From: Somniosus microcephalus
Lineage: Eukaryota
Assembly: GCA_052327205.1 (NCBI GenBank)
Contig: CM126207.1
Coordinates: 27,776,001 to 27,840,000, forward strand
Length of the DNA: 64,000 nt
Reading direction: 5' to 3'
The stretch's first letter is position 1, and every line of letters begins with the position of its first letter. A program made the position numbers and the translations under genes. The notes below the pieces were generated by a model. That model was not told where the DNA came from and ran no database searches. It saw only the letters and a list, made by a program, of their open reading frames with translations. This document shows, piece after piece, positions 2,336 through 52,946 of this stretch.

Positions 2336-5300
2336 GTCTTCATATGAGTCCTCTGCCGTAGAACTAGTGTATGACCTCGCCCTCCGGCGAGCTTGCACCT
2401 GCACTTTCCTTTCCCCCCCACCCCAGCCCTGGCTCCTGCACAGTGTGTTTTTCAGTTTCAAACCCAGCAAGAGGAATTTTGAAATATAATTAACAGAATG
2501 CAGGGCATGGTAACTGGATGTTCTGCTACTGATGGTAGAGCGAAGGGAGGAGGATGCTCAGTAGCCCGGACCCTGAAGAGCAGAGAGTGTGAGCTGAGAT
2601 GTAAGGGTGGTGGAATTTTTTTTAGATGGTCTACTTGCTTTAAACCAACATCTATGCAAGAATTGTAACCGATCACTATTTTTCATGTCTAGGGGTTGTT
2701 TGCAAAGAATACTGGGGATTGAAATTTTTATAAAATAGACTCGCAGAAAAAAGCTTCAACGAGCCTAATTTTATGTATCTGGGGCTTGAGTTTGTGTGGG
2801 GGAGGGGAGGAGAAGATCCTCAACTCTCCTGACAGTCACCTTTCTTAAATTAGTTCTATCTGTATTGCAGTTCTATGCAGCATAAAACAAATTGAAAAAT
2901 TTTCAGACACATCTGTTTGGGTTGTGCAATAAGGCACCATAGGGGCATTTAGGACATCCTCAGCTTTGTTTCACTGATCTGAAAGTGCATTAAGTAACTA
3001 ACCCTGTCATTATAAATGTATGAATGTAATTATGCTCAGCTTCACTTTGTGGATTTTGTATAGGTGTCGGGAGCCTGGTTTTAATGTATGCTCTTGGTCC
3101 TCCAAGAAACATCCTTGCTAGTCAGTTATCCCTCCCTTTGAATAATGCGGTCACATAGGAATCATTAAGAATGAAGGAATCATATGTGCAACTGGAGAAT
3201 TTAGCCATAATCAGTGCAATAATGTCAGTGCTTTGGATTTCTTGCACATCAAGTGAGTAGAATCCCTCTTGATTAACTTAATGCATTGGATATTTAAGGA
3301 GAGGCCCATTTCCACAATGTGTATGCAGTCAGCCATTCCCGGTACCTTGGTAATTCAGTTGCGCAGAATTTCTGCTTTTTGGCAGTTGTTTTTAATTTTG
3401 CTTCAAAAAAACACATGAAACATGAAGAATGCACCATCGCAGCTTTGATAACTTGACATTGCGCTCCAAGAGATGCCTGTATAATTCCCTCCAGAGCTTA
3501 AACTTTTTGAGCAATGTGGATGTGCGTACTTACGTGGGTGCAGAAAAGGAGCTGGTATTGAATGGATGAGTTTACTGACCTGGATGTGATCGGGTTGGAG
3601 GGCAAGTCTGAGGCTGCCATCAGGATTATACTTGTCAGCAGCAGCCTTGTTGGGTTTGACGCTGGAAAACACACCCAAGATGAACAGGGCCACTCGAAGA
3701 CATTTTTCTGTTGGGCTTGTGGGCCTTTGCCATTTGGCTTGCTGAAGAACCGTCCTTTGGAGTTGATTTTTAGCCCATCAACTAGCAATTTTCATTCAGT
3801 CACACCCACCTGCAGAATGGCGTCTGGGAGCAGTGATGCGGGCGGGGGCGGGTGGGGGGAATGTAGTAGAAGATTTTAGAATTAGAAACAGTACCAAAAA
3901 GGACTAGATTACTGTACATTAGGAAAACTAGAATTCAAGTTTAAAAGGAAAGAGAGAAAGAATAAGTAGCAACTGAAAGATAAACGAACAGCTGAATGTC
4001 CAAAGCATTAGGTGTGATTGACTGAACACATTGTGCCACAGAATCAGCACTCAGCCTAATGGAGGAGGAAAGAAAATGTTCTTTTCTTTCTAACCTTTTG
4101 GGCAGCTTTAGAAATTCATAATATTTTAAGAGCACATTCAGTGGACACAGACTGTGGCAGTTCTCCCTCAGTGCCCAAGCTCCAGTTTTAATGAGCCAGC
4201 CACTGCAAGCTACACGGAAAAGGTCACTTGCATAATTCAGTTAGTTTCTCTGTAGGTGCACAAAGTGACACCTGTGGGAAGGTTTGCGCAAAGATGCCAA
4301 AGATTTTTATGAATAGGGAAAGGTACACTGAATCTCTCAATCTCTTGCATGCATTGTGGCTGCTGTTCAGTCCAGCCAACCTTGCTTTCACAACTGGCTC
4401 GATATGCCCGCACTCTGTGAGGCACATAATTGGACTGAATAGGCAAAGGGCATCTTGCTTGTCTTGATCCATAATGGTTTCAATTCAGCATTTATAACAT
4501 ACAGAGGAACTACATTTTCCTGTAATTCGTGGTCAAAAATGAACGGATAAAAACCCAGGTCCTGACGTCACAAATCCAATATTCCTTCAAGTTCTACATT
4601 ATAAAAATCAATGTTGCTTAAAGTGCTATGTCATAAAATCGATATTCCTTTAAGCCTTATGTTGTGCGGCATCTTCTCCGTGGTAATGGCACTACAGTGT
4701 AAGACAAAGAATTGCAGAGAAAATTCACTACTTTTTGTATATTATAAACAGAAGCTGATATTCTCACTGAATTCTCAGACAATAATCCATTTTCGATTTC
4801 AGATGTGTGAGTTTCACCCTCTGACACCATCTGAACTCGTCAGCCAGCATTCTTTATCCTTTGTGAACAGGGGTGAGCAATGGTGTATTACATTTTGGAC
4901 AGTGCAATGTTCATTCAGAGAGAGAGTCTAAAAATATCAAATTGCTACAACAAGAATTGCATTAACTTTAATACTCTTACATTAGTTTATGTTTAAACAA
5001 TTTGTACTGTTGACAGTTTCAGGATGGGAGAAGAAATTGATTGTGCTCAGATGCTAAATTGACATTAGTAGATATCTATTTACTCAATGTTCTTTAGTGA
5101 TTTTCTGCTGTCATTTTGACAGTGTTATGGTCGAGCTTTTTAAGCACCACTTGGGTGTCAACAAGCCCACATCAAGTGGGCTGCACCTTTCAAAAGCTGG
5201 AAGTGTATGTCCTGAGTTACCTTATTTAGCAATGAGACTGCAGACTGAAATTCATGTAATGTTCTCACTACATCTCCTGTCTCAGAAAATGGGAAGTATC

Positions 5301-8720: not shown

Positions 8721-9454
8721 GGGCCAGAATTTGCTGTTGAAATAACGGTAAGGCTAATGGCGCTCATTGTTATTTATGTGTAAATGGTACAGCAGCTTCA
8801 GGCGAGGAGCAGAAGAGCAGTTAAATGTGACTATCCAAAAGTTACTGCCCAAGCTGGCTTTGCGATAACAGCATCTCACCCTTAGCCTCCCTGTTTTTTT
8901 AAGAACTTGCTGTATTTGCCCAGTAATTGCCAATTAACCCCGCCACAGAAAGTAAAGTCTTGTCATTACAAGTCTTTTAACACCGTGTTAAGTATTAATG
9001 ACTGCCAATCAACCTCTCTGGCACTGAAAGTTAACTCTTTCAACTGTGGAGTCTCATTCCTTCAGGTTCTTAATTTTTTGGGGACCTTTTAAAAATGTCA
9101 ATTTTTCTTTTACTTTTCCTATCTGTCTCTCTTTCTCTCTCTCTTAATTCAATCTTTCTTTCCCTCACTTTATTTCTTTTCCTGTACCTGATTTGACATT
9201 GAATTCACCCATTCTAATTTACACTTCCTTCTCAGTCTTTCCTGTGTTTATTTCCCAAACCTTAAATTTCATTGGTTAAGGAGAAACCCTGTTGGTTGCC
9301 CTGTTCACTCAGGTCTCAGATGCCCTATTTCCCTTGTTATCAGCTCACACTTTCAGCCACTTTGTGGGCAAAAAATGTTTGAGCTGAAGGGTGCAGGGGC
9401 AAATCTAACTAAATGGCAGATGCGTTAGATGCCCTGCTACAGCAAAATTAGGGC
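8721..9454. mobile_element. Non-autonomous Harbinger-like element abutting a CR1 insertion
   Basis: Imperfect TIRs GGGCCAGAATTTGCTG / CAGCAAAATTAGGGC. Confidence 0.5.
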
Positions 9455-12400
9455 TGGTGTGGGAGAAATGGGTTTTGCTTCCTGGGACACTGGCACCAGT
9501 ACTGGGGCAGAAGGGAGCTGTTCCGTTGGGACGGGCTTCACTTGGCCAGTGCTGGGACTAGAGTCCTGGCAGATCATATAACTAGGGCTGTAGAGAGGGC
9601 TTTAAACTAACTAATGGGGGGGAGGTTCCTAGAGAGCAAATAATAAAAATGACAACAGAGAAGGTCATAGACTTAGGTAGCAGTGGGGAAATTAAAAACC
9701 AGAGCGTGTCAGGAAGGGGCAGAAGGTATGGAGTAAAAGGTAAAGTAATAAAAAGGGCAAAAGCAGGAACTAAGTGTCACAAAACATATTTGAAAGTTCT
9801 CTATCTGAATGCACGTAGCATTCGTAACAAAATAGACGAGTTAATGGCACAAATAACTACATATGGGTATGATCTTGTGGCCATTACAGAAACATGGCTG
9901 CAGGGTGACAATGCCTGGGAATTAAACCTACCAGGTTATTTAACGATCAGGAAGGACAGGCAGGAAGGAAGGGGAGGTGGGGTGGCTATGTTAATAAAGG
10001 AAGGAATCACTGTAATACAGAGAAATGATATTGGGTCAAAAGATCAGGATAATGAAACAGTTTGGGTGGAGGTAAGGAATAATAAGGGGAAAAAAACACT
10101 AGTGGGCGTAGTCTATACGCCTCCGAACAGTTGCAACTCTGTTGGACGGAGTATCAATCAGGAAATAGTTGAGGTTTGTAATAAGGGAGCATCTATAATT
10201 ATGGGGGATTTTAACAATCATATTAATTGGACAAATCAAATTGGGCAGGGCTGCCTTGAGGATGAGTTCATTGAGTGTATTAGGGATGGGTTTCTTGAGC
10301 AGTATGTAACTGAACCGACCAGGGGGCAAGCAACCTTAGATCTGGTCCTGTGTAACGAGACAGGATTAATTAAAAATGTCCTAGTAAAGGATCCCCTTGG
10401 AATGAGTGACCATAACATGGTTGAATTCCATATTCAATTAGAGGGTGAGCAGGTTGGATCTCAAACAAACGTGCTAAGCTTGAATAAAGGAGACTATGAA
10501 GGTATGAGAGTGGAATTGAGTAGAGTGGATTGGGAAAATAGATTAAAGGGTAAGAAGATACATGATCAGTGGTGTACATTTAAGGAGTTATTTTACAACT
10601 TCCAAAAAAAATATATTCCACTGAGAAGAAAAGGGTGTAAAAGAAAAGACAGCCATCCGTGGCTAAGTAAAGAAATTAAGGATAGTATTCGACTAAAAAC
10701 AAGGGCATATAAGGTAGCCAAATCTAGTGGGAGGATAGAGGATTGGGAAAACTTTAAAAGACAGCAAAAAAATAACAAAAAGATTGATTAAGAAAGGGAA
10801 GATAGATAATGAAAGTAAATTAGCAAAAAATATAAAAACAGATAGTAAGAGTTTTTATAGTTATATAAAAAAAAAGGGTGGCTAAAGTAAATGTTGGTCC
10901 CTTAGAGAATGAGACCGGGAAATTAATGGTGGGAAATATGGAGATGGCAAAAACACTGAATGAATATTTTGTATCAGTCTTTACAGTAGAGGACACTAAG
11001 AATATCCCAACACTGGACAAACAGGGGGCTATGGGGGGGAGGAGCTAAACACGATCAAAATCACTAAGGAAGTGGTACTTGGTAAAATAATGGGACTCAA
11101 GGCGGATAAATCACCTGGACCTGATGGCTTACATCCTAGGGTCTTGAGGGAAGTGGCGGTAGGGATTGTGGATGCATTGGTAATAATTTTCCAAAACTCC
11201 CTGGACTCCGCAAAGGTCCCGGCAGACTGGAAAACTGCTAATGTAACACCCTTATTTAAAAAGGGCAGTAGACAGAAGGCTGGAAACTATAGACCGGTTA
11301 GCCGAACATCTGTGGTAGGTAAAATTTTGGAGTCCATTATTAAGGAGACAGTAACAGGACATTTGGATAATCATCATTTAATAGGACAAAGTCAGCATGG
11401 TTTTATGAAGGGGAAGTCATGTTTGACAAATTTGCTGGAGTTCTTTGAGGAAGTAACATATAGGGTGGATAAAGGGGAACCAGTGGACGTAGTGTATTTA
11501 GACTTCCAAAAGGCATTTGACAAGGTGCCACACAAAAGATTATTGCTTAAGATAAAAAATCACGGGATTGGGGGTAATATTCTGGCATGGATAGAGGATT
11601 GGCTATCTAACAGAAGGCAGAGAGTTGGGATAAATGGTTCATTCTCAGACTGGCAATCAGTAACTAGTGGTGTTCCGCAGGGGTCGGTGCTGGGTCCCCA
11701 ACTCTTTACAATCTATATTAACGATTTGGAGGAGGGGACCGAGTGTAACGTATCAAAGTTTGCAGATGATACTAAGATGGGAGGGAAAGTAGTGAGTGAG
11801 GAGGACATAAAAAGTCTGCAAGGGGACATAGACAGGCTAAGTAAGTGGGCAGAGATTTGGCAGATGGAATACAATACTGGAAAGTGTGAGGTTATGCACT
11901 TTGGCAGGAAAAATCGTAGAGCAAGCTATTATCTTAATGGCAAGAAAGTGGAAAGTACTGAAGTACAAAGGGATCTGGGGGCCCTGGTGCACGAAACTCA
12001 AAAGGTTAGTATGCAGGTGCAGCAAGTGATTAAGAAGGCCAATGGAATGTTGGCTTTCATTGCTAGGGGGATAGAATATAAAAATAGGGATGTATTGCTT
12101 CAGTTGTACAAGGTATTGGTGAGACCGCACCTGGAATACTGCATACAGTTTTGGTGTCCATACTTAAGAAAAGACATACTTGCTCTCGAGTTAGTACAAA
12201 GAAGGTTCACTCGGTTAATCCCGGGGATGAGGGGATGGACATATGAGGAGAGGTTGAGTAGATTGGGACTCTACTCATTGGAGTTCAGAAGAATGAGAGG
12301 CGATCTTATTGAAACATATAAGATTGTGAAGGGGTTGGATCGGGTGGATGTGGGGAGGATGTTCCCGATGATGGGTGAAACTAGAGCTAGGGGGCATAGT

Positions 12401-12799
12401 CTTAGAATAAGGGGCTGCTCTTTCAAAACTGAGATGAGGAGGAACTACTTCACTCAGAGGGTGGTAGGTCCATGGAATATGCTGCCCCAAAAAGCTGTAG
12501 AAGCTACATCATTACATAAATTTAAAACAGAAATAGACAGTTTCCCAGAAGTAAAGGGAATTAGGACATGAGTCTAGGTTCGGATCGGACATGGCCCTGT
12601 GGGTAGCGGAGCGGGCCCAGGGGCCGTGTAGCCTGATCCTGCTCCTATTTCGTGTGTCTAATTCTGTTAGATTCAGGAGATGGTTCTGTGATAGTAGATT
12701 GGCGGTTAGGATCAGATCAGCCATGATCTTATTAAATGGCGGAGCAGGCTCGAGGGGCCGATTGGCCTACTCCTGCTCCTATTTCTTATGTGCTTATGT
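9454..12799 (+). mobile_element. CR1 LINE, 5'-truncated (copy 1)
   Basis: Starts in the ORF1 C-terminus (matches 32579 onward). ORF2 EN+RT is split by frameshifts. Ends in the CR1 stem-loop tail CTACTCCTGCTCCTATTTCTTATGTGCTTATG. Confidence 0.95.
9649..12571 (+). pseudogene. CR1 ORF2 (APE endonuclease + reverse transcriptase), frameshifted
   Basis: ORFs 9649-10791 (YLNARS, ITETW, MGDFN, SDHN) and 11072-12571 (DFQKAFD, GVPQGSVLGP, FADD). The breaks lie at A/G homopolymer runs. Confidence 0.92.
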
Positions 12800-13515
12800 T
12801 TGTCTATTCCCTCCCCATTCTCCCTATTACACTGACACAATATGGCCACTTACTTTCTGGCCAGGGCCCATACAGCTCTAAGTCCAGTGTAAAGTTACAC
12901 TGTCTGGTGCTAATAATATCTCGCTTTCACTGTATCGCTCTTCTAATGTGTTTTCCTAATAAGTGACATCCTAGACCTTTGATGACCTGGATCTGTGTCC
13001 TATCAAACTTCAGCTACACATGTGTGGTTTTGTGTCTTCACAATTATGCTATTGGATAAATGTGACTTAATTTGAAACCAGTTCTGTTCACGGCAGTGAA
13101 ATATTAGATTCAAGCGGGTTGATTTTAACCTACTCTGTTGGGCACAAATGGTCCTGAGCTCATGAAAAATGCTATAGAAATGCAAAATTGTTCTTCTTAA
13201 GTTGCCATTCTCGCACAAAGGCTGATGTGAGAAATGGGACCGTATGGAGGGAGCTCTACCATGCATCTAACCTGTGCTATATCTAGCTTGGAAATGTTTG
13301 CTGTAGATAGTGGGTAGAAAATGTTTCCATTCTCCAGACCTCTCATCCTTCACCTTGCTGAGCACAAAAACACACCCTCAAACAAATAAATTGCTAAATA
13401 TTTCTAATGTAAAATATCACAACACCAGAATTGTGACCCCTGATCTATCTGTAAGTTGAGACCCTAAAAATTAAATCTGAATATTGTGGTCGTCATTGTA
13501 GGATACCCTCTCAAT

Positions 13516-20770: not shown

Positions 20771-23700
20771 TTTTTTTTTTTTTATTCATTGATGGGATGT
20801 GGGCGTCGCTGGCTGGCTAGGCCTGCATTTAGTGTCCATCCCTAATTGCCCTTGAGAAGATGGTGGTGAGCCGCCTTCTTGAACCGCTGCAGTCCATATG
20901 GTGTAGGTACACCCACAATGCTGTTAGGAAGGGAGTTCCAGGATTTAGGCCCAGCGACAGTGAAGGAACGGCGATACAGGTCCAAGTCAGGATGGTGTGT
21001 GGCTTGGAGGGGAACTTGTAGGTGGTGATGTTCCCATGCGTCTGCTGCCCTTGTCCTTCTAAGTGGTAGAGGTCGCGGGTTTGGAAGGTGCTGTTGAAGG
21101 AGCTTTGGCGAGTGCTGCAGTGCATCTTGTAGATGGTACACACTGCAGCCACAGTGCGCCGGTGGTGGAGGGAGTGAATGTTGAAGGTGGTGGATGGAGT
21201 GCCAATCAAGCGGGCTGCTTTATCCTGAATGGTGTCGAGCTTCTTGAGTGTTGTTGGAGCTGCACTCATCCAGGCAAGTGGAGAGTATTCCATCACACTC
21301 CTGACTTGTGCCTTGTAGATGGTGGAAAGGCTTTGGGGAGTCAGGAGGTGAGACACTTGCTGCAGAATTCCCAGCCTCTGGCCTGCTCTTGTAGCCACAG
21401 TATTTATATGGCTGGTCCAGTTCAGTTTCTGATCAATGGTAACCCCCAGGATGTTGATAGTGGGGGATTCAGCGATGGTAATGCCATTGAATGTCAAGGG
21501 GAGATGGTTAGAGTCTCGCTTGTTGGAGATGGTCATTGCCTGGCACTTGTGTGGTGCGAATGTTACTTGCCACTTGTCAGCCCAAGTCTGAATGTTGTTC
21601 AGGTCTTGCTGCATATGGACACGGACTGCGTCAGTATCTGACGAGTCTCGAATGGTGCTGAACAGTGTGCAATCATCAGCGAACATCCCCACTTCTGACC
21701 TTATGATGGAGGGAAGGTCATTGATGAAACAGCTGAAGATGGTTGGGCCTAGGACACTGCCCTGAGGAACTCCTGCAGTGATGTCATGTGATTGAGATGA
21801 ATGACCTCCAACAACCACAGCCAACTTCCTTTGTGCTAGGTATGATTCCAACCAATGGAGAGTTTCCCCCTTGATTCCCATTGACTTCATTTTTGCTAGG
21901 GCTCCTTGATACCACACTCGATCAAATGCTGCTTTGATGTCAAGGGCAGTCACTCTCACCTCACCTCTTGAGTTCAGATCTTTTGTCCATGTTTGGACCA
22001 AGGCTGTAATGAGGTCAGGAGCTGAGTGGCCCTGGCGGAACCCAAACTGGGCGTCAGTTAGCAGGTTATTGCTGAGTAAGTGCCGCTTGATAGCACTGTC
22101 AATGACACCTTCCATCACTTTGCTGATGATTGAGAGTAGACTGATGGGACGGATTTGTCCTGCTTTTTGTAGACAGGACATACTTGGGCAATTTTCCACA
22201 TTGCCGGGTAGATGCCAGTGTTGTAGCTGTACTGGAACAGCTTGGCTAGGGGCGCAGCGAGTTCTGGAGCACAAGTTTTCAGTACTATTGCCGGAATGTT
22301 GTCAGGGCCCATAGCCTTTGCAGTATCCAGTGTCTTCAGCCATTTCTTGACATCACGTGGAGTGAATTGAATGGGCTGAAGACTGGCATCTGTGATGCTG
22401 GGGACCTCAGGAGGAGGCCGAGATGGATCATCCACTCGGCACTTCTGGCTGAAGATAGTTGCAAATGCTTCAGCCTTGTCTTTTGCACTCGCGTGCTGGG
22501 CTCCACCATCATTGATGATGGGGATATTTTTGGAGCCTCCTCCTCCTGTTAACTGTTTAATTGTCCACCACCACTCACGACTGGATGTGGCAGGACTGCA
22601 GAGCTTTGATTTGATCCGATGGTTGTGAGATCACTTAGCTCTGTCTATCGCATGTTGCTTCCGTTGTTTGGCATGCAAGTAGTCCTGTGTTGTAGCCTCA
22701 CCAGGTTGACACCTCATTTTTCGGTATGCCTAGTGCTGTTCCCGGCATGCTCGCCTGCACTCTTCGTTAAACCAGGGTTGATCTCCCGGCTTGATGGTAA
22801 TGGTAGAGTGAGGGATATGCCGGGCCATGAGGTTACAGATTGTGGTTGAATACAATTCTGCTGCTGCTGATGGCCCACAGCGCCTCATGGATGCCCAGTT
22901 TTGAGTTGCCAGATCTGTTCGAAATCTGTCCCATTTAGCACGGTGGTAGTGCCACACAACACGGTGGAGGGTATCCTCAACATGAAGACGGGACTTCGTC
23001 TGCACAAGGACCGTGCGGTGGTCACTTCCACCAATGCTGTCATCGACAGATGCATCTGCAACAGGTAGATTGGTGAGGACGAGATCAAGTAGGTTTTTCC
23101 CTCACCACCTGTCGCAGACCCAGTCTGGCAGCTATGTCCTTTAGGACTCGGCCAGCTCGGTCAGTTGTGGTGCTACCGAGCCACTCTTGGTGATGGACAT
23201 TGAAGTCCCCCACCCAGAGGACATTTTGTGCCCTTGCTACTCTCAGTGCTTCTTCCAATTGGTGTTCAACATGAAGGAGTACTGATTCATCAGCTGAGGG
23301 AGGGCAGTAGGTGGTAATCAGCAGGAGGTTTCCTTGCCCATGTTTGACTTGATGCCATGAGACCTCATGGGGTCCTGAGTCAATGTTGAGGACTCCCAGG
23401 GCTACTCCCTCCCGACTGTATACCACGGTGCCACCACCTCTGGTGGGTCTGTCCTGCCGGTGGGACAGGACATACCCAGGGATGGTGATGGTGGTGTCTG
23501 GGACATTGGTTGTAAGGTATGATTCGGTAATTATGACTATGTCAGGCTGTTGCTTGACTAGTCTGTGGGACAGCTCTCCCAATTTTGGCACAAGCCCCCA
23601 GTTGTTGGTAAGGAGGACTTTGCAGAGTCGACAGGGCTGGGTTTGCTGTTGTCGTTTCCGGTGCCGAGTGGTCCGTCCGGTTTTATTCTTACTGTTTTTC

Positions 23701-24042
23701 GTAGCGGTTGTTTACAACTGAGTGGCTTGCTTGGCCATTTCAGAGGGCATTAAGAGTCAACCACATTGCTGTGGGTCTGGAGTCACATGTAGGCCAGACC
23801 AGGTAAGGACGGCAGATTTCCTTCCCTAAAGGACATTAGTGAATCAGATGGGTTTTTGCAACAATCGACAATGGTATCATGGTCGCCATTACTAAGACTA
23901 ACATTTAATTCCAGAATTAAATTGAACTGAATTTAAATTCCACCAACTGCCGTGGTGGGATTTGAACCCATATTCTCAGAGCATTTGACTGAGCCTCTGG
24001 CTTACTAGTCTAGTGACATAACCACTACGCCACCGCCTCCCC
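20771..24042 (-). mobile_element. CR1-group LINE with tRNA-derived SINE-like 5' head and no ORF1
   Basis: Minus strand: A box TGGCGTAGTGGTT (24032-24020), B box GGTTCAAATCCC (23968-23957), about 300 nt of SINE-like body, then the endonuclease (KVLLTNNWGLVPKLGEL, ITES, VGDFN), RT (DIKAAFD, GVPQGSVLGP, FADD), and AATAAA running into poly(A). Confidence 0.88.
20829..23620 (-). pseudogene. LINE ORF2 (EN+RT) broken into several frames
   Basis: ORF pieces 23085-23591, 22730-23005, 22115-22435 and 20829-22274 are collinear parts of one EN-RT protein. Confidence 0.9.
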
Positions 24043-24104
24043 TCATTTGTTGACTATTTTCTATGGGGAGGGAGGTGGGCGATGTCTTGGACAAAAATAC
24101 CTGC

Positions 24105-25300
24105 TCACAATGGTGTTAAGTAAATTGGACATGTTCTCATTAGAAAGTAGAAGGTTGAGAGGTGATATGATTGCAGTTTTTAGCGTTCCAAAGGAACTAG
24201 ATAATGTAGACCATGACGAGCTATTTCACCTTGTTCAGAACAGTCGAACCGTGGAGCATAGCCTGTGCTTGAAAGGAGTAAATTTAAATCAAATCTGTGG
24301 AAACAATGGTCCCGATATTTACGGGGAGGTGGGGAGGTAGCGGGGTGGGGAGGTGGAGATGGGACTTGCAACAGCCGGGAAACCCGGAAGTACGGGTTTC
24401 TTGGAGATCCTGATGAATTTGTGGGTCAGAGGGGACATCTTGCGTGGGGGACCGTGGATAGAGTCGGGGGGAGCGGAGAGATGGAGGGGGGGGGCGTGGG
24501 TAGATCACAGGGGTCCGATTGCATTGAGTGGGACATGGGTTAGCTCGGTGGGGGGGGGTGCTGGTGGGAGGCAGGCCTGCTCCTCCTGGCCTAAAGCAGT
24601 GCTGGAAAAAGCACTTATCAGTTGTATCCGGCTGTTCTTGCCTCCCTTCAGCTACCGGGTTTCCTGGGCCCTAGGAAATCCAAACTGCAGGTGTTAAATC
24701 TAAAATGGAGCTAAAATTTGAGGCACGCAGCCTCATTAAAATAATTAAATGACACACCCACCTCTGGAGAGCAAGTTAGCCACCCACCCTGCAACCCACC
24801 TCTGTTAAAACCAGGTTGGAGGTGGGTTGGGGTCAGGCTTCCCACTTTTGAATTTTTAACCCCTCTCCTGCCCCTACTGGGGGGGGGGGGTTAAAAATCC
24901 CCTGCAATATTTCAGTGAGCAAGTGGTCAACCTATGGAACAGGCTCTCTCGGGAACAATGAAAATAGTTGGTATTGATTCATTCAAATGCAAATTAGATA
25001 GATATCTCTCCGAAATTAACATTTGGGGATACAGTATATGAGTAATTTAAGATATGACATATACTAAGGGTAGTGTGCTTGAAAGGAACAGTTGACTTTA
25101 GATCTATGGTATCCAAAGCTCTCCACCACTGGGGGTTTTCCTCACCTCATGTCTGGGTCTGTTGTAGACTCATTGATAGAGATTGATGGCTGTAATTAGT
25201 CAACAACTCCATTATGATTGTATGACGTGACTGTGAGGAGAGTGGAATGCAAACTAGATGGACCTTGTCTTTTTTCATCCAGTAATTCCTATGTTCCTAC
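24105..25300 (+). mobile_element. Old CR1 3' fragment interrupted by a DNA transposon
   Basis: LDMFSLESRRLRGDMIAVF... continues after 24905 with ...YFSEQVVNLWN and a degraded tail. Confidence 0.7.
24308..24905. mobile_element. Non-autonomous Harbinger-like element
   Basis: Cleanly interrupts a CR1 fragment with 3-bp TSD AAT; degenerate TIRs. Confidence 0.65.
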
Positions 25301-31782: not shown

Positions 31783-32735
31783 ATGGAGCAGGTGATGTGT
31801 TACTGTTGCGAGATGTGGGAGCCGGTGAACCCCATTGAGGCTCACGGTGATTACGTCTGTGACAAGTGTCTGCTGCTACAGGAACTCCAGCTCCGTGTTG
31901 ATGAGCTGGAGTCTGAGCTTCAGACAGTGCGACACATCAGGGAGGGGGAGAAGTACCTGGACTCTGTGTATCAGGAGGTGGTCACACCTATGAAGTTAAT
32001 TAATTCAGATGTAGCCCATGGTCAGGGACAGGACGGTGTGACTACGAGTGAGGCAGGTACGGGGATCCAGGAGGTAGAGCTGGAGGAGCCGCAGCCCTTG
32101 CTCTTGTCCAACAGGTTCGAGGTTCTTACTCCCTGTGGGGACAGGAGCAGGGACTGCAGGGAAGATGAGCAACCTGGCCACAGCACCGTGGAATGGGGGG
32201 CCATTCAAAAGGGGGGAGTAAATAGAAATGTTGTAGTGGTAGGGGATAGTATCATTAGGGGGACAGATAGAGTTCTCTGCAGCTGAGAGCGAGAGTCCCG
32301 AAGGCTGTGTTGCCTACCCGGTGCCAGGGTTAAGGACATCTCCTCTGGGCTGGAAAGAAACTTGCAGTGGGAGGGGGTGGATCCAGTTGTCGTGGTCCAT
32401 GTTGGTACAAACGACGTAGATAGGACTAGGAAGCCGGTTCTGTTAAAGGAGTATGAGCAGCTAGGGGTCAAATTTAAAAAAAAACCTCAAGGGTAATAAT
32501 CTCTGGATTATTACCTGAGCCACGAGCGAATTTGGCTAGGACAAATAAAATTAGAGAGTTAAATGCGTGGCTCAAAGACTGGTGTGGGAGAAATGGGTTT
32601 TGCTTCCTGGGACACTGGCACCAGTACTGGGGCAGGAGGGAGCTGTTCCATTGGGACGGGCTTCACTTGGCCAATGCTGGGACTAGAGTCCTGGCGGATC
32701 ATATAACTAGGGCTGTAGAGAGGGCTTTAAACTAA
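31783..32735 (+). pseudogene. CR1 ORF1 (zinc-finger/leucine zipper + SGNH esterase-like domain)
   Basis: CYCCEM...CDKC, coiled-coil heptads, VVVGDS, HVGTND, DGLH. One in-frame stop (32284-32286) and a frameshift at the A run near 32477. Confidence 0.88.
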
Positions 32736-32773
32736 CTAGTGGGGGGGAGGTTCCTAGAGAGCAAATAATAAAA

Positions 32774-35714
32774 ATGACAACAGAGAAGGTCATAGACTTA
32801 GGTATCAGTGGGGAAATTAAAAACCAGAGCATGTCAGGAAGGGGCAGAAGGTATGGAGTAAAAGGTAAAGTAATAAAAAGGGCAAAAGCAGGAACTAAGT
32901 GTCACAAAACATATTTGAAAGTTCTCTATCTGAATGCACGTAGCATTCGTAACAAAATAGACGAGTTAATGGCACAAATAACTACATATGGGTATGATCT
33001 TGTGGCCATTACAGAAACATGGCTGCAGGGTGACAATGCCTGGGAATTAAACATACCAGGTTATTTAACGATCAGGAAGGACAGGCAGGAAGGAAGGGGA
33101 GGTGGGGTGGCTATGTTAATAAAGGAAGGAATCACTGTAATACAAAGAAATGATATTGGGTCAAAAGATCAGGATAATGAAACAGTTTGGGTGGAGGTAA
33201 GGAATAATAAGGGGAAAAAAACACTAGTGGGCATAGTCTATAGGCCTCCGAACAGTTGCAACTCTGTTGGGTGGAGTATCAATCAGGAAATAGTTGAGGC
33301 TTGTAATAAGGGAACATCTATAATTATGGGGGATTTTAACTATCATATTAATTGGACAAATCAAATTGGGCAGGGCTGCCTTGAGGATGAGTTCATTGAG
33401 TGCATTAGGGATGGGTTTCTTGAGCAGTATGTAACTGAACCGACCAGGGGGCAAGCAACCTTAGATCTGGTCCTGTGTAACGAGACAGAATTAATTAAAA
33501 ATGTCCTAGTAAAGGATCCCCTTGGAATGAGTGACCATAACATGGTTGAATTCCATATTCAATTAGAGGGTGAGAAGGTTGGATCTCAAACAAGCGTGCT
33601 AAGCTTGAATAAAGGAGACTATGAAGGTATGAGAGCGGAATTGAGTAGAGTGGATTGGGAAAATAGATTAAAGGGTAAGACGATACATGATCAGTGGTGT
33701 ACATTTAAGGAGTTATTTTACAACTTCCAAAAAATATATATTCTACTGAGAAGAAAAGGGTGTAAAAGAAAAGACAGCCATCCGTGGCTAAGTAAAGAAA
33801 TTAAGGATAGTATTCAACTAAAAACAAGGGCATATAAGGTAGCCAAATCTAGTGGGAGGATAGAGGATTGGGAAAACTTTAAAAGACAGCAAAAAATAAC
33901 AAAAAGATTGATTAAGAAAGGGAAGATAGATTATGAAAGTAAATTAGCAAAAAATATAAAAACAGATAGTAAGAGTTTTTATACTTATATAAAAAGAAAA
34001 AGGGTGGCTAAAGTAAATGTTGGTCCCTTGGAGGATGAGACCGGGAAATTAATGGTGGGAAATATGGAGATGGCAAAAACACTGAATGAATATTTTGTAT
34101 CAGTCTTTACAGTAGAGGACACCAAGAATATCCCAACACTGGACAAACAGGGGGCTATAGGGGGGGAGGAGCTAAACACGACCAAAATCACTAAGGAAGT
34201 GGCACTCGGTAAAATAATGGGACTCAAGGCGGATAAATCACCTGGACCTGATGGCTTACATCCTAGGGTCTTGAGGGAAGTGGCGGTAGGGATTGTGGAT
34301 GCATTGGTAATAATTTTCCAAAACTCCCTGGACTCAGCAAAGGTCCCGGCAGACTGGAAAACTGCTAATGTAACACCCTTATTTAAAAAGGGCAGCAGAC
34401 AGAAGGCTGGAAACTATAGACCTAACATCTGTGGTAGGTAAAATTTTGGAGTCCATTATTAAGGAGACAGTAACAGGACATTTGGATAATAATTTAATAG
34501 GACAAAGTCAGCATGGTTTTATGAAGGGGAAGTCATGTTTGACAAATTTGCTGGAGTTCTTTGAGGAAGTAACATATAGGGTGGATAAAGGGGAACCAGT
34601 GGACGTAGTGTATTTAGAATTCCAAAAGGCATTTGACAAGGTGCCACACAAAAGATTATTGCTTAAGATAAAAAATCACAGGATTGGGGGTAATATTCTG
34701 GCATGGATAGAGGATTGGCTATCTAACAGAAGGCAGAGAGTTGGGATAAATGGTTCATTCTCAGACTGGCAATCAGTAACTAGTGGTGTTCCGCAGGGGT
34801 CAGTGCTGGGTCCCCAACTCTTTGCAATCTATATTAACGATTTGGAGGAGGGGACCGAGTATAACATATCAAAGTTTGCAGATGATAGTAAGATGGGAGG
34901 GAAAGTAATGAGTGAGGAGGACCTAACAAACCTGCAAGGGGACATAGACAGGCTAAGTAAGTGGGCAGAGATTTGGCAGATGGAATACAATACTGGAAAG
35001 TGTGAGGTTATGCACTTTGGCAGGAAAAATCGTAGAGCAAGTTATTATCTTAATGGCAAGAAACTGGAAAGTACTGTAGTACAAAGGGATCTGGGGGTCC
35101 TGGTGCACGAAACTCAAAAAGTTAGTATGCAGGTGCAGCAAGTGATTAAGAAGGCCAATGGAATGTTGGCTTTTATTGCTAGAGGGATAGAATATAAAAA
35201 CAGGGAGGTATTGTTGCAGTTGTACAAGGTATTGGTGAGACCGCACCTGGAATACTGCGTACAGTTTTGGTGTCCATACTTAAGAAAAGACATACTTGCT
35301 CTCGAGTCAGTTCAAAGAAGGTTCACTCGGTTAATCCCGGGGATGAGGGGATGGACATATGAGGAGAGGTTGAGTAGATTGGGACTCTACTCATTGGAGT
35401 TCAGAAGAATGAGAGGCGATCTTATTGAAACATATAAGATTGTGAGGGGTCTTGATCAGGTGGATGCGGTGAGGATGTTCCCGATGATGGGTGAAACTAG
35501 AACTAGGGGGCATAGTCTTAGAATAAGGGGCTGCTCTTTCAAAACTGAGATGAGGAGAAACTTCTTCACTCAGAGGTTGGTAGGTCCATGGAATATGCTG
35601 CCCCAAAAAGCTGTAGAAGCTACATCATTACATAAATTTAAAACAGAAATAGACAGTTTCCTAGAAGTAAAGGGAATTAAGGGTTACGGGGAGCGAGCAG
35701 GAATTTGGACATGA
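32774..35714 (+). pseudogene. CR1 ORF2 (EN+RT) with one frameshift
   Basis: ORFs 32774-34441 and 34431-35714. A short deletion near 34422 relative to copy 1 breaks the frame. Confidence 0.93.
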
Positions 35715-36240
35715 GTCTAGGTTCAGATCGGTCATGGCCCTGTGGGTAGTGGAGCAGGCCCAGGGGCCATGTAGCCTGATCCTGCTCCTATTTCGTGTGC
35801 CTAATTCTGTTAGATTCAGGAGATGGTTCTGGGATAGTAGATTGGTGGTTAGGATCAGATTAGCCATGATCTTATTGAATGGCGGAGCAGGCTCCTGATT
35901 GACCAGAGAGTATCATTGTCAAAAGCCTGCATTCACTTGCCCATCCCCTCCTCAGTGACGATACACTGACTATGAGATTACAGAGGAGGGAAAATAGCAA
36001 TCAAATACATTACTTTGTTTTATTTTAATAAAGATAACGTGGATTTGGTGCTCATCAGGTGAAGGTTATTAATGCTGGGGCATTGAATTTTTCCCATTTT
36101 AAGCACCCAGCATCAAACACTCCCAAGTCAGCTATGGCAAGGCCAGATGCAGAGTAACGCTCCCTGTCCTCTGCCCCAACAATACACCTCAGTCTCAACC
36201 TACCCATCCATGCTGCAGCAGTGACATGTTTTCTGTTTCC

Positions 36241-36510
36241 CTCGGAGTGAGATGATCTCCTGGGGCCTCTCGGAGTGAGATGATCTCCTGGGGCCTCTCG
36301 GAGTGAGATGATCTCCTGGGGCCTCTCGGAGTGAGATGATCTCCTGGGGCCTCTCGGAGTGAGATGATCTCCTGGGGCCTCTCGGAGTGAGATGATCACC
36401 TGGGGCCTCTCGGAGTGAGATGATCTCCTGGGGCCTCTCGGAGTGAGATGATCACCTGGGGCCTCTCGGAGTGAGATGATCTCCTGGGGCCTCTCGGAGT
36501 GAGATGATCA
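36241..36510 (+). repeat. 28-bp minisatellite, about 9.6 copies
   Basis: Unit CTCGGAGTGAGATGATCTCCTGGGGCCT. Confidence 0.97.
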
Positions 36511-37705
36511 ATTGTTCATGTTATAATTAGGGGCAAGTTTATACTGTAGGCTGATGCCCACTCGGAACTGGGTTTAGACTGCCCATACTCATTTCACATA
36601 TGCTGCATGCAGGGAATGTCATTGCTGATGACAACAATAGGGTTCCTGTACAGAAACTATTCAAGTCACCGATTTATGTTGAAACTCAGATTTTTGTTAT
36701 TTCTTTTTAATAGGAAGGGGTAGAAGGCACAACTAGTGAGGGTGAAATATTCATCTTGCAGGTTATTCATATCTTCACTGAAATCTCTCACTTTCTCCAT
36801 GGCCTGGAATGAGCTATCCAACTGCACATGACAAGTCCCCATGAGAAATCTAGGGCCTGAGTCCTGTCACTGTTGCAATCAATGCTGAAGAGCTTGTGGA
36901 GAATTGCACTAAAACTGCTATTTGGAATGCCATTGATTTTTCTTTTATCTGCAGCTCTAGACATTAAAAAACACTATTAATCCCCTGATATCAACTCTTC
37001 TGCACAATTACAACTGCCATTCCCAATAACTGTCAAGCCAGTGTCATCAGAGTTTTCAGGCTGCTTCTGAAAGAAGATGTCTGATTTCCAGTCCTTGTTT
37101 GCCAACCAGTGTTAAGGATAACAGCAGTTCCCTCCTTCTGCTATGTTGTCTCCTGTGCAGTGTGTTCATGAACGGTGGTTATCTTCAATATTTATTGAAC
37201 TTCTACAAACAAATCAGACCAAGAATACTGAGCAAGTAAATAGAAGTTCAGTCTTTTAAAAGAAAAGTAGCTAATTTTTTTTCTCCACATTTTAATATAT
37301 TCTATCGCCCTTTTGGTTCTCCGTTTCCCAGATTTGAGTGCACTCTGACGATTTGCTTCTGTGCTTATTGCAGTGCTGATGTGCAGCTGATTCTTGAGTG
37401 GTTTGCCCTCAGTAAGTTTGCCGTTTCCCCACTGAGGAAATGTCGAACCTTCCCTTGTATGGCATGGCCTGAGATTGGATAATTGCCTTGCGGGAAATCA
37501 TGTCACAAACCAGCAGGGGAGCAAGACTGGAATTTTCTGCTTGGTGAAATTAAAGGAAGTCAACTGCAAACGCTAGAAATCTGAAACAAGAGGAAGATGC
37601 TGGAAATACACAAAAAGGTAGTCAGCAACTGTAAAGGGAACAGACAGGTTAACAATTTGGGTGTAATCCTTCTGTTGTGACAAAACGTGTGCAAAGGTGA
37701 GGAGA

Positions 37706-38054
37706 TCACAGAATCACAGAAACCCCACAGTGCAGATAGAGGCCATTTCGGCCCATCGAGCCTGCACCGACACATATCCCACCCGATCCCCGTAACCCCT
37801 ACACCAACACATATCCCACCCTATCCCCGTAACCCCACGTATTTAATCCCCCTAACACTAAGGGTCAATTTATCATAGCCAATCAACCTAACCCGCGCAT
37901 CTTTGGACTGTGGGAGGAAACCGGAGCACCCGGAGAAAACCCACGCAAACACGGGGAGAATGTGCAAACTCCACACAGACAGTTGCCCAGGGCCGGATTC
38001 GAACCCGGGTCCCTGGCGCTGTGAGGCAACAGTGCTAACCACTATGCCACCGTG
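37706..38054 (-). mobile_element. V-SINE (HE1-like) tRNA-derived SINE
   Basis: Minus strand: A box TGGCATAGTGG, B box GGTTCGAATCC, V-domain TCTGTGTGGAGTTTGCACATTCTCCCCGTG...GGTTTCCTCCCACAGTCCAAAGA, CR1-like tail. Imperfect flanking repeat GTGCAAAGGYGARGA. Confidence 0.88.
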
Positions 38055-38569
38055 CAAAGGCGAAGAAGGTAAAGGTCATTTACCTTCTTCGCCTTCCTCC
38101 TGATACCAACAAGTAAATAAAAGTCTAGTCTGTTTTTAAAAGTAAGCTGTTGAAGTTTATTTCATTTCTCATTCGTATTTTATTCTGCTTCCCCTTTTGA
38201 TTCTCCATTCCTCAGATGAGTGTGTAATCTGGTGAAATGTAATCTTATTTTTAATTTGCAGCCAGGTTTGAAGGGCCTGGTTGGCTGCATTGGATTTGGT
38301 CAGCGATCTCCCTCTGTGTAGCTTGAATCTGTGCTCTTACTGAGGGGTCTTCAGCCTCTCCTTTGGTAGAACCCCACATCAGGACCTCCAACTCTTCAGC
38401 ATCAAAAGGGAGCACTGTTATCCGCATATCTCCGCTGTGCCATTGTGAATAATGAGTCCCTTTTTTTTGCCCACCACCACAACTTACCCTTGATGGCGAG
38501 CTGCAGCCCTTTAAGAGCTGCTGACTCCTCCGATTTTGCACTGCTCAACCACATGTGTTACATGGTAGC

Positions 38570-41500
38570 TGGTGGGCAATGGCCACCCCGCGTTAAAAGA
38601 ATTCACGCACAGGCATCTTCCACCCTTTTAAAATGAAGTTCGGGACCTGGAACGTCAGGACCCTCATGGACAACCCCGACAGCGACAGACTGGAATGCCG
38701 TACTGCTATCGTTGCCCGGGAGCTCAGACGTGTCGACATAGACATCGCCGCCCTAAGCGAGACCCGGCGGGCAGGGGAAGACCAGCTCAAGGAGCAAGGC
38801 GGTGGTTACACCTTCTTCTGGAAAGGCAAACCTGAAGAAGAACGCCGCCTCCACGGGGTAGACTTCATCATAAAAAATGAGCTCGTTGAACATCTCAGAG
38901 ACTCCCCTTGTGGAATAAACAAATGCCCCATGACTCTACGGCTCACCCTAGCCCGGAACCGGTGCGCTTCGGTCATCAGTGCGTACGCCCCAACACTGGA
39001 AACCACAGACGAGACCAAAGAGGAATTCTACTCCAGCCTTGAACAAATCCTTGCCCCGAGTCCCAACGGGTGACAAGCTGATTCTTCTTGGCGACTTTAA
39101 CGCCAGAGTTCGAAAGGACACAGACCTCTGGGGAGGTGTGATCGACAGAGAGAGGGTAGGGAAAGCCAACTCCAATGGTACCCTCCTCCTGATGAAATGC
39201 TTAGAACATGGCCTTGTCATAACCAACACCTTGTTCTATCAGAGATACAAGTACAAGGCTTCATGGCAACATTCTCGCTCAAAACACTAGCATCTGCTGG
39301 ACTACGTCATCATCCAAGCAAGGGACCGCAAAGACGTCCGCATCACCCGCGACATGACAGGAGCTGATGACTGCTGAACAGACCACCACCTAATCCACTC
39401 TGTCATCTCCATCAACGTAGCCCCAAAACAGCGGTGGCAACAGAAGCAGTGCCGCAGGAAAATCAATGCTGGAGCACTCAAAGACCCTGCTAAGAAAGCC
39501 CTATTCAGCCTGCGCCTCACAACCAACCTGACGACTCCCAGTGATGCAGAGACACAAAGTGTCCACAGCGCCTGGTCTGCACTCAAGGCCTCCCTAATCA
39601 GCACCTGTGAAGTGATGCTCGGTCACTCGACCAGGAAACACCAAGACTGGTTCGACGAGAACGACCAGGAGATCCAGGAGCTAATAAGCTGCAAGTGCAA
39701 GGCATTCCTAATCTGGAAACAGCAACACAACTTGAGAGCAAGGAAGCAGCTCTACAGAAGCCTGAAGGCCAAGATCCAACAAAAAACTCGTGACCTAAAG
39801 AACAGATGGTGGATGGAGAAAGCGCAGGAGATCCAGCAGCTAGCCGACAACCACGATGTACGTGGATTCTTTAGTGTAGTCAAGACCACCTACAGCCCAA
39901 GCACCCAAGGTCCTACCCCACTGCTGGCCAAGAATGGAGAGGCACTCATCAAAGACAGAGAGGCAGTCAGTGCGCACAGGAAGGAGCACTTCAAAGATCT
40001 CATTAACCAAGACTCTGTCTTCGACGCGAGTGTCCTCAACTCCATCCCGCAGCATGCTACCCGCCACCACCTCAGCACAACCCCAGCCCGGCATGAAGTT
40101 GAAAAGGCCATCCGACAACTGAAGAACAACAAGGCCCCAGGAGCAGATGGAATCCCTGCCAAGGCGCTAAAACATGGTGGAGAAGCACTATTGGCGCGAA
40201 TGCACAAACTAATTTCTCTTACTTGGAAGGAGGAGAGCATGCCAGGGGACCTCAGAGACGCCGTAATCGTGACCATCTTCAAGAAAGGTGACCAGTCCAG
40301 TTGCGGTAATTACAGAGGAGTTTCCCTGCTGTCTGCCATAGGGAAAGCCATCGCAAGAATCCTCCTCAATAGCCTTCTCCCAGTGGCTGAAGAGCTCCTC
40401 CCAGAGTCGCGATGTGGATTCCGCCCACTAAGGGGCACAATGGACATGATCTTCACCGCGCGTCAACTACAAGAGAAATGCAGGGAACAGCACCAACCAC
40501 TGTACATGGCCTTTCTTTGACCTCACAAAGGTCTTCCGACACTGTCACCCGTGAGGGATTATGAAGTGTCCTCCTCAAATTCGGCTGCCCTCAAAAGTTT
40601 GTCACCATCCTCCGCCTGCTTCACGATGACATGAAAGCCGTGATTCTGACCAACGGATCCACCACAGACCCAATTCACGTACCGACCGGGGTCAAGCAAG
40701 GCTGTGTCATCGCACCAACTCTCTTCTCGATCTTCCTGGCTGCAATGCTTCATCTCACCCTCAGTAAGCTCCCCGCTGGAGTGGAGCTAATTTACAGAAC
40801 AAATGTGAAACTGTTCATCCTCCGTCACCTCCAGTCCAGATCCAAGGTCGTCCCATCCTCTGTCATCGAATTACAGTATGCAGACGACACTTGCGTCTGC
40901 GCTCACTCGGAGGTCGAACTCCAAACCATCGTAAACACCTTCACCGAAGCGTACGAGAGCATGGGCCTTACACTAAACATCCGTAAGACAAAGGTCCTCT
41001 ACCAGCCTGCCCCCATCACACAGTACTGCTCCCCAATTATCAAAATCCATGACGAGGCCTTAGACAATGTGGACCACTTTCCATACCTCGGGAGCTTACT
41101 GTCAACAAGGGCAGACGTCGATGACTAAGTCCAACACCGCCTTCAGTGTGCCAGTGCAGCCTTTGGTCGCCTGAGGAAGAGTGTTTGAAGACCAGGACCT
41201 CAAACCCAGCACCAAGCTCATGTCTACAGAGCAGTAGTGATACCCACCCTCCTGTATGCTTCAGAGACATGTACCATGTATAGCAGGCACCTCAAAGCAC
41301 TGGAGAGGTACCACCAACACTGCCTCCGCAAGATTCTGCAAATCCATTGGCAGGATAGGCGCACCAACGTCAGTGTTGTCGCTCAGGCCAACATCCCCAG
41401 CATCGAAGCTTTGACCACGTTCAATCAGCTCTGACGGACGGGCCACATCGTCCGCATGCCTGATACGAGACTCCCAAAGCAAGTTCTCTACTCGGAGCTC

Positions 41501-49930: not shown

Positions 49931-51994
49931 CACAATGGAAATCGACCCAAATTACTCAAACCCCTGAATTAACTTGAAAACTAACATAAATTCCTAAAGG
50001 AAGGCAGCACAACTAAGCTTAATGTGGCTACATATTTTCTGTCTGTTCTCAGTTTATTCTCAGCTGAGGTGACAATTGGGGCATTTTAATTGGCCTTAGC
50101 GCCCATGAGCTAGGAACGGCAAAGTTAGCCAGGGCTCCTTCTCCTGATCCCTATCCAATGGCTCATTCTCGGGGATGTGGACATTCCTGTGTTCCTATGA
50201 CAGGATCAGGCTCAGCTGTGATGCCTTTCATAGTCAAATAACCAACGACAGTACGTCAGTTCGGACTAGTCTCACTGACTAAGCTCATACCATGAAGAAT
50301 GGCTACTTGGCCAAATCACATGGACGCATATCCCAGCAAGATCAGTACCTTCAGGAAAACTGGCCATTTTTCTGAGGAGGCTTGAGCTGAGGCTGACTTT
50401 TCTATCTCCTTCCCTAGCAAGTGCCATACCTTTACTCTACCCTCCCTCCAGTGATTATATGGCTATAATTGGGAGCTCACTACAAGAGAGGGGTGATAGT
50501 GAAAGCTAAGGTCTTACCACTTTTGTGACACAACATGTTATCAGTTTTTATGTGTATTTGCACAGCTTTCGGAGGGAATTTTTACACCTACATCCCATCA
50601 CTCCACAGCACACTACATTGGGGCAGCTGGTTGTATCTCTTGATGCTATGATTCGTTTAAACATTCTGAATAACCCAGTTCTTGGAACGACAGAGATGGG
50701 GGAGGAGGAATAGCAAAATTGCAGGAATGTGCAGTGTTGAAACGTGTCATTTTTGTGTATGGTCGATTACAGAAAAGCACAAACATTCTCCTGTTCTCTT
50801 TTGTTAAGAGGAGTTTTCAGTGTCTTTCAACTGAGATTTCTGCTGACCGTCTGAACTGTAGCAACAGAAAACTCGGGCCATCCAAGAATCCGCAGGTCCT
50901 GCTACGCCCACTTGTACTTCAGTGAAAATTGTCTTATTTTGATTATAAATGCTAATTTTTATTAGGAAAAGCTAGCAAACGCAGTTAATGTTAACACAGT
51001 GCAGAATTTGCATCAGCTTGCAATAGAAACAAAAGGTTTAATGAAAAACATATGAATTTGAAATATGAAATGGAAAGATTTAATATCTAAAATATTATAT
51101 ATGATAGAAACTAAAGTAGAGATGCTGTCCAGTATTAGCATTCATAATGGTTACTTTCCCCAACAGAGTCTGCAGCTGCTATTGCTGCGGAGAAAATGGT
51201 AACCTAATTTTTTTTTAAAGCAATACTGATATTTAGTCACATTGACACAAAATATATTAAGGATAATGATTAGGAATGTTTCTATGTTTTTTTAAAAACT
51301 ATTGTTTGGAGAGTATTCTGGGCAAGTCTCCCCTTATTGTCTATAGTCTGTTGGCACATAGCCTGCTTTCCGGCTATTTATTATCAGTGTCAGCCAGGGA
51401 TTGCCATTGTGTGACTTCCCCTGCTCCAGATTTCCTTCTTCCCTCTTGGGACGTGAGGCATTCTCGGCTCCCTGTTCACTGCCGCTTAGACCAGCAACCG
51501 AGTACAGCAAGACTCAAACGTTTGATGGCCCCTACACCGTGGTGTTGAGCATTAACCCAATATCACTGTGCCATCCCAGTAACCCTTGTGTTCTTAATGG
51601 TAACCAGTGTTGTATCACGCCACAGCAGTAGCTTCCTTTTAGAAGAGTAGTTCCCACCAGGGATCTCTGCATTCTGGATGATCTCATTCAAATGCCTCGT
51701 TCAATTTCTGGACTAGTTTTTTTTTTAAATGATCCCATGCAGAATTTTTTCAGCTCCCTTGGGGAATACGAGATGAATCATTGTGATGGGTTGATATGTA
51801 GCTGGTACACAATTGGCAAGCCTCCTACTACAGTAGAATGGCAAGCCCTGTGTCCTCATTGACAACAGATTGATTCTTCCTAGATATTGATGGAAATACT
51901 ACGTGGATACTGCATGTGTTCAGTTATTATGAAGACTTTCTCTCCCCGTTATATGCAGCATTTCACTCCCCGTTTAAATAGAATTCCCTTTTCC

Positions 51995-52675: not shown

Positions 52676-52946
52676 TAATATTTGCATATTGAATTGTCAT
52701 TGGCCCACAGGCATCTGTAAAGAATACCTATTATATTCACATGTGATCACATGCTGAGTTGTCATTGGCCTGCAGGCATCTGTAAGGACTACTGTTGTTT
52801 TGGAAGACCCAGGGTCCTGACTCCATCTTGTCCACACTGCTGTATGTTTAAGATCACAGGCCTGATGCTTCATAAAAGAGTTTAAACTGTAATACTCCGT
52901 TGTCCTGCAATTTATTAGTTTTGTACAAAGTGTGCAAAACAAGACA
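52676..52946 (+). repeat. 5' LTR
   Basis: Near-identical to 57120-57389 but lacks the terminal TG. Confidence 0.93.

Follow-up and report, generated by a model that had tools for sequence, protein, structure and literature searches.

A CR1-group Zenon LINE family of Somniosus microcephalus with a tRNA-like head joined to ORF2

The 64,000-nt window analyzed here (Somniosus microcephalus, contig CM126207.1, positions 27,776,001 to 27,840,000) contains a 3.27-kb element on the minus strand, running from 24043 to 20771, in which a tRNA-type head is fused to ORF2. Judged by its sequence, it is an inactivated member of the elasmobranch Zenon LINEs (CR1 group); identity to the named elasmobranch Zenon consensuses was assessed by eye over the first 400 nt only. 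The fusion of a tRNA-SINE head to ORF2, noticed in the initial annotation, proved to be the fixed junction of an amplified family. We give an even chance to the reading that this LINE codes for its own copying enzyme, with Pol III probably transcribing it from the head, a non-AUG codon probably serving as the translation start, and its own ORF2p doing the copying.

Anatomy of the element and its tRNA-like head

Along the minus strand, the order is tRNA-like head, AT-rich spacer, central block, basic leader, APE endonuclease, reverse transcriptase (RT), 3' UTR, and A tail (Table 1). One ORF holds both the endonuclease and the RT, ORF1 is absent, and the element ends in poly(A) with no microsatellite end. 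Elasmobranch Zenon LINEs (PMC13343379) share the single APE-RT ORF, the absence of ORF1, the poly(A) tail, and a length of ca. 3.3 kb; no structural difference from them was found, and the shark element belongs to that family. By eye, the first 160 nt of SquAca_Zenon-1 and of our older majority show ca. two differences. ORF1 was found neither in the window copy nor in any relative examined. Its absence had been regarded as unusual for the group but is ordinary here, because the element is a Zenon, and all Zenon elements lack ORF1 (PMC13343379). The window copy was inactivated by 14-, 16-, and 1-nt frameshifting deletions and two nonsense codons, which break ORF2 near 23103, 22730, 22631, 22152, and 21113. 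The central block passes into the open frame (from 23711 downward) without an A tract or duplication, as originally described. The endonuclease, which had been placed about 100 nt further on, begins with its motif at 23618; this is ca. 95 nt past the end of the conserved block and ca. 160 nt past the block as it was then quoted.

Table 1 Features of the tRNA-headed Zenon element in the window.
Feature	Positions	Strand	Remarks
Whole element	20771..24043	-	dead full-length copy, young subfamily of tRNA-headed Zenon LINE, ca. 1% from family majority
tRNA-derived head	23948..24043	-	cloverleaf 24036-23948, AGT anticodon loop, long variable arm; ARAGORN, 90% stringency
Pol III A box TGGCGTAGTGG	24022..24032	-	starts at +12 of element; from sequence
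Pol III B box GGTTCAAATCC	23958..23968	-	from sequence
AT-rich spacer	23858..23947	-	83% identity between subfamilies
Central block	23712..23857	-	98.6% identity between young and old majorities; near-invariant by eye in 7 shark/ray consensuses
Basic leader, in frame, without ATG	23619..23711	-	31 codons; near-cognate ACG 23702-23700 as candidate start, this lineage only
ORF2	20842..23711	-	968 codons stop to stop in family majority; broken in window copy
APE-type endonuclease domain	23015..23618	-	Pfam PF03372, PF14529
Reverse transcriptase domain	21435..22163	-	Pfam PF00078, E 2.5e-38
3' UTR and A tail with AATAAA	20771..20841	-	ca. 70-nt UTR; other copies often T run then A; no TSD

The A and B boxes reported for the minus strand are both present at the 5' end of the element. 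ARAGORN called no tRNA in the head at default stringency. At 90% stringency it scored 23948-24036 as an 89-nt tRNA-like cloverleaf with anticodon AGT, and shuffled sequences scored in 1 of 500 cases for the young head and 0 of 500 for the old head. The Rfam tRNA model matched one older head weakly (20.3 bits, E 0.1, under the 29-bit cut-off) and gave only noise and no tRNA match on the window head. In having both boxes in a tRNA-like 5' head, the element agrees with SINE2; being short and non-coding, also SINE2 features, applies to the short derivatives only, the element itself being 3.3 kb long with a 968-codon ORF. Copies begin 11-12 nt before the A box. Identity between the young and old subfamilies was 98.6% in the central block, 92.9% in ORF2, and 77% in the tRNA part, the least conserved region, and the old-subfamily B box has A in place of its first G. 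Both boxes are kept in 7 of 7 elasmobranch consensuses, with a varying arm between them (by eye). In the stem of the variable arm, which lies between the anticodon arm and the T arm, both sides change across subfamilies and species with pairing still possible (by eye). The long variable arm and its stem suggest that the head may have originated from tRNA-Ser despite its Thr anticodon.

The central block had been likened to the Meta domain of MetaSINEs. This identity was not upheld: by eye the block is unlike the MetaSINE alignments, and searches with two 12-nt motifs stayed at chance level (2 and 4 matches in L164 against 3.1 and 6.6 expected), neither motif occurring on the sense strand of the head region. 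In bivalve MetaSINE alignments (by eye), the 66-bp Meta domain directly follows the tRNA region, an arrangement absent from the shark element. The published MetaSINEs (PMC4824008) share with the shark element a tRNA head scored as Thr-like; they differ in that their Meta domain adjoins the tRNA part and is unlike its spacer or central block. Zenon can mobilise Meta SINEs in bivalves (PMC11481361). A 5' UTR hairpin motif beginning GGGCGGATGAG is common to head-less relatives (L205:400-480, L209:180-215) and the hagfish EptBur_Zenon-2 (by eye). Because the EptBur_Zenon-2 consensus has the same TCCTTTAGGGA hairpin as the central block of the shark element, this block may stem from the LINE's own 5' UTR, not from a SINE body. 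No significant fold was detected in the central block (z -0.5), and neither it nor the 3' end gave any stable structure (z -0.8 to +0.5). There was no long complementarity between the 5' and 3' parts (longest 7 nt), and a rough descriptor of HDV-like ribozymes, run without a positive control, gave 0 matches in the first 440 nt.

Other features of the window include two CR1-type LINE copies on the plus strand (9454-12800 and 32579-35900), ca. 98% identical and 23.1 kb apart, and two further tRNA-like ARAGORN calls at relaxed stringency (37985-38056 and 39842-39928, minus strand), probably heads of other SINEs. An open frame at 24017-24340 (plus strand) stands back to back with the head; we take it to resemble a decayed CR1 ORF2 C-terminus. 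There are also 23-nt tandem arrays with duplicated flanking blocks ca. 4.4 kb apart (51843-52753 and 57295-57600) and a near-perfect 28-nt tandem array (36185-36565).

The head-ORF2 junction in the genome and in related species

Using the head plus the endonuclease as the query, we took the best 40 of 7482 candidate matches in the genome. All 40 span the head-endonuclease junction, which thus recurs at 39 loci besides that of the window copy; among these 39 copies, 37 distinct 5' flanks were counted. The tail is reached by 31 of the 40 copies; 30 were aligned, one with an insertion being left out, and these young copies lie 0.9-2.7% from the column majority. Exact matches numbered at least 8634 for a central 24-mer, at least 4987 for an endonuclease 24-mer, and at least 30496 for a tail 23-mer, with 0 for the reversed-sequence controls. 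Older copies (ca. 85-89% identical) were located through diverged fragments. Fifteen of the 45 loci of this older subfamily extend into the tRNA part, and all 15 keep the head-block-endonuclease order. The 5' starts of the remaining older loci are scattered, with no shared alternative 5' end among the matches listed. Relatives with a different 5' UTR or an ORF1, which the initial annotation had named as evidence against a real family, were not found among any examined. Target site duplications (TSDs), suggested as a family test, did not serve as one and are mostly absent: the longest shared flank word averaged 5.3 nt against 5.05 nt in mismatched pairs (34 copies; 4 without the tail motif left out). 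Two nested insertions are associated with target deletions of 3 and 10 nt. Long copies, too, frequently carry internal deletions of varied size (L101, L109, L110, L112, L128, L129, and L313).

The head and central block start 7 of 7 elasmobranch Zenon consensuses published in the supplement of PMC13343379 (by eye, first 400 nt), which represent four sharks and one ray (CarCar, HypSab, RhiTyp, ScyCan Zenon-1, and SquAca Zenon-1 to -3). Since the head is present in all seven shark and ray consensuses, it is, on this sequence comparison, at least as old as the shark-ray split. Among the two hagfish and one coelacanth Zenon consensuses, the head was found in 0 of 3 (by eye, first 400 nt), and these contain T4 runs in their first 400 nt. 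No head with A and B boxes was found upstream of the ORF in 80 more distant metagenome relatives (29-47% identity), whose 5' ends may be incomplete. The word 'tRNA' appears 0 times in the text and supplement of PMC13343379, and 'SINE' occurs a single time in the text, outside any passage dealing with Zenon. The Zenon family and its lack of ORF1 are already known; the tRNA head, the missing AUG, and the short forms of elasmobranch Zenon are not described in that paper.

ORF2 and its missing AUG

When the 30 young copies and the 71 old fragments are each reduced to a majority sequence, both majorities have a single ORF2 frame that stays open over 968 codons, and Met first occurs in it at codon 282, downstream of the endonuclease. 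An in-frame ATG, sought in the consensus as had been proposed, was not present in the majority ORF2 before that codon. The claim that this copy has no in-frame ATG holds for the open frame, because the two in-frame ATGs that do exist just upstream (23750 and 23738) are closed off by TAA at 23714-23712. In the majority, an upstream in-frame ATG is followed one codon later by a stop, and this short frame lies in the central block. A second in-frame stop before the leader is fixed in the young subfamily and found in many old copies, which rules out readthrough from the upstream ATG.

Between the young and old majorities, dN/dS over codons 34-968 was 0.16 (changes at 71 of 2137 non-synonymous and 127 of 668 synonymous sites), and it was 0.13 before the first Met. 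For the private non-CpG changes of the 30 young copies, the ratio was ca. 0.69 (356/2137 and 161/668). ORF2 is under purifying selection, including the part before the first Met; an own ORF2 maintained by selection is a feature of autonomous LINEs. Only 5 of 120 homologues lack Met in residues 2-250. A whole ORF2 occurred in 0 of 30 sampled full-length copies, the longest reaching 824 aa.

The leader frame is intact in 47 of 50 young copies; of the old copies, 11 of the 17 that could be scored keep it, and 4 were not scorable. The leader indels are mostly 6-nt repeat units, so the frame could be kept without selection. Near the leader start, 39 of 50 young copies have ACG, seven ATG, and three ACA; the ATG and ACA variants are the expected CpG decay. 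ACG is ruled out as a universal start, since other species have ACA or AAA at that site, and the out-of-frame ATG present in the leader of consensuses from other species occurs in neither majority here. Translation of ORF2 by termination-reinitiation in L1 and SART1 is reviewed in PMC5972666, in the part available, and provides a precedent for non-standard ORF2 translation past an upstream stop. Those elements differ in having Pol II bicistronic RNAs, a long ORF1, and an AUG at ORF2.

T runs, short forms, and possible routes of expression

The scan of the sense strand for Pol III terminators, proposed in the initial annotation, showed T4 to be absent from both the young and the old majority, and from 22 of 30 young copies. 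Taken alone, this absence is borderline (P = 0.03 young and 0.11 old by synonymous shuffle; P = 0.007 by base shuffle and 0.06 by a Markov null), and the two majorities are not independent of each other. Synonymous shuffles predict 15.6 and 11.6 T3 runs for the young and old majorities, which contain only 7 and 5 (z -3.2 and -2.7); runs of A, C, and G were at expectation in both. The 35 long head-less relatives together had 1011 T4 against 988 expected, and their T3 z values ranged from -2.7 to +2.4, one reaching -2.7. As controls, the CR1-type copies in the window had 9 and 10 T4 runs and T3 z values of +0.1 and -1.9.

Within 35 nt of the anchor, 37 of 150 distinct tails have T4 or longer followed by A, compared with 2 of 150 in the next 35 nt downstream and 176 of 5000 random 35-mers; the other tails comprise 9 with T4 without A and 104 without T4. 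A T run followed by an A tail is the pattern of T+ SINEs (PMC11240701, as far as the available text goes), and homopolymer slippage could also produce such tails. With the T+ SINEs B2, Dip, Ves, and Ere of that text (PMC11240701), the shark element shares a tRNA head, AATAAA, and, in many copies, a T run followed by an A tail. It differs in that those SINEs are <600 nt and non-coding whereas it is 3.3 kb with a selected ORF, and in that only the 37 tails mentioned show the T+ pattern.

It had also been suggested that a related short SINE is an internal-deletion derivative of the long element, and this was borne out at least for the young subfamily. At 30 loci found with the head alone as query, 23 copies were long and 7 short; with the central part alone, 24 were long and 6 short (one in common with the head-only set). 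In a position-ordered sample of 30 central-motif loci, 22 consisted of head and tail (two by eye), 6 ran into ORF2, and 2 were other. Twelve young short copies have 12 different junctions, the 5' part ending at 342-420 and the 3' part starting at 3131-3188. Microhomologies of 1-5 nt occur at nine of these junctions and 1-7 added bases at three; splicing was rejected as their source, with 0 of 12 being GT-AG. The heads of the 12 copies are 98-100% identical to the young and 79-89% to the old majority (heads plus tails, 97-100% and 79-94%). As their junctions differ and they match the young majority better than the old, the short copies arose repeatedly from the long element. One short-SINE junction guessed beforehand had 0 exact matches. 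In the short copies L327, L338, and L340, the junction is the same, position 267 of the majority being followed by 3160; hence certain short forms either multiply or have undergone duplication. In contigs of other organisms (X3, X12, and X16), the end of the central block is joined straight to the 3' tail at nearly one place, the short form there being more fixed than in the Somniosus genome.

In lepidopteran Zenon, Persaeus SIDEs were born repeatedly by internal deletion at microhomologies and are likewise short 5' plus 3' derivatives (PMC6740152). The available part of that paper gives them no tRNA homology or Pol III promoter; the shark derivative, in contrast, has full SINE anatomy because its parent LINE carries a Pol III-type head. 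The bipartite SINEs from RTE and Vingi (Kojima 2018, PMC5786205) also combine a small-RNA head with LINE 5' and 3' parts. Their head, as far as the available text tells, was added after deletion to a non-coding derivative, whereas the shark head sits on a coding parent.

As a tentative model that we place below an even chance, an uncapped 3.3-kb Pol III RNA would have served since the shark-ray ancestor as both mRNA and template, with a cap-independent non-AUG start set by the central block and SINEs formed in one step by internal deletion. In the broader reading, to which we give an even chance, TFIIIC and Pol III would start ca. 11 nt before the A box, so that each full-length copy would carry its own promoter. 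Pol III would read the T4-free body and terminate in the tail or immediately beyond it, at a T run; an A tail would then be added to the RNA, as in T+ SINEs. Ribosomes would start in the leader at a near-cognate codon, past the stop of the tiny upstream frame. ORF2p would bind the 3' tail and carry out target-primed reverse transcription without ORF1, mostly without TSDs. Template jumps at 1-5 nt microhomologies would fuse the terminal 110-170 nt to the initial 340-420 nt, each event thereby yielding a ready SINE in one step. Pol III transcripts generally lack a cap and are short. Since Pol III is weakly processive, an autonomous element has to be transcribed by Pol II, in the argument of Kojima (PMC10886601, available part). 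In the L1 system, Pol III transcripts retrotranspose without ORF1 (PMC2666806, available part).

A chance insertion or one-off template switch at the window locus would have parallels in the tRNA/L1 and Alu/L1 chimeras that occur sporadically in primates (bioRxiv 10.1101/2025.02.02.635956, available part). We give it practically no weight; the identical junction at 39 other loci and in the consensuses of five other species refutes it. It is also very improbable that the long form is a non-autonomous passenger, that is, a chimera of SINE and LINE that relies for its copying on a different Zenon with a conventional head. The absence of a start codon and of an intact ORF in any of the 30 full-length copies would fit such a passenger, and our sample comprised the best matches and the first loci of one contig only. 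However, the headed lineage's own ORF2 is under purifying selection, no other 5' end appeared in the young or old copies sampled, and all published elasmobranch consensuses have the head.

Two further readings are unlikely and deserve more weight than the passenger. One is a division of labor, in which the head would drive a Pol III template while ORF2p came from capped Pol II read-through of genic copies and acted in trans. This would explain the T-run depletion and the T-then-A tails without an uncapped mRNA, and in the position-ordered sample short non-coding forms outnumber long ones (22 versus 6 of 30), from which efficient trans action would follow. Yet strong purifying selection on ORF2 is easier to reconcile with cis preference, and an AUG-less ORF before the endonuclease would still need an odd start on a capped RNA. 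The other, rather doubtful too, is that the head came from a tRNA SINE and the long RNA is made by Pol II, head and block acting as a Pol II promoter or as a translation or packaging signal and the T deficit having another cause. It agrees with the central block, not the tRNA part, being most conserved (98.6% versus 77%). Other Zenon elements are poly(A)-tailed and, in the available parts of PMC13343379 and PMC6740152, have no Pol III promoter, and L1 can co-opt foreign 5' sequences (bioRxiv 10.1101/2025.02.02.635956, available part). Against it stand the persistence of the A and B boxes in all seven consensuses (by eye) while the arm between them changes, the start of copies 11-12 nt before the A box, and the limitation of the depletion to T runs, not A, C, or G runs.

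In reviews, LINEs are coding elements transcribed by Pol II, and SINEs are non-coding ones transcribed by Pol III. This divide is broken by a coding LINE that has retained its Pol III-type head in sharks as well as rays. The literature searched contained no report of a tRNA-headed coding LINE family; Repbase, Dfam, SINEBase, or subscription journals may hold one. Even if Pol II makes the RNA, an AUG-less, selected ORF of 968 codons and a 98.6%-conserved block of 150 nt need explaining. The family offers a route to SINE birth without a fusion step, with many young intermediates in one genome. If the Pol III reading is true, the element would be a vertebrate example of a long Pol III RNA that occurs naturally and is translated. 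It would then allow tests of how translation proceeds on an RNA without a cap and of whether ORF1 becomes dispensable when Pol III supplies the RNA.
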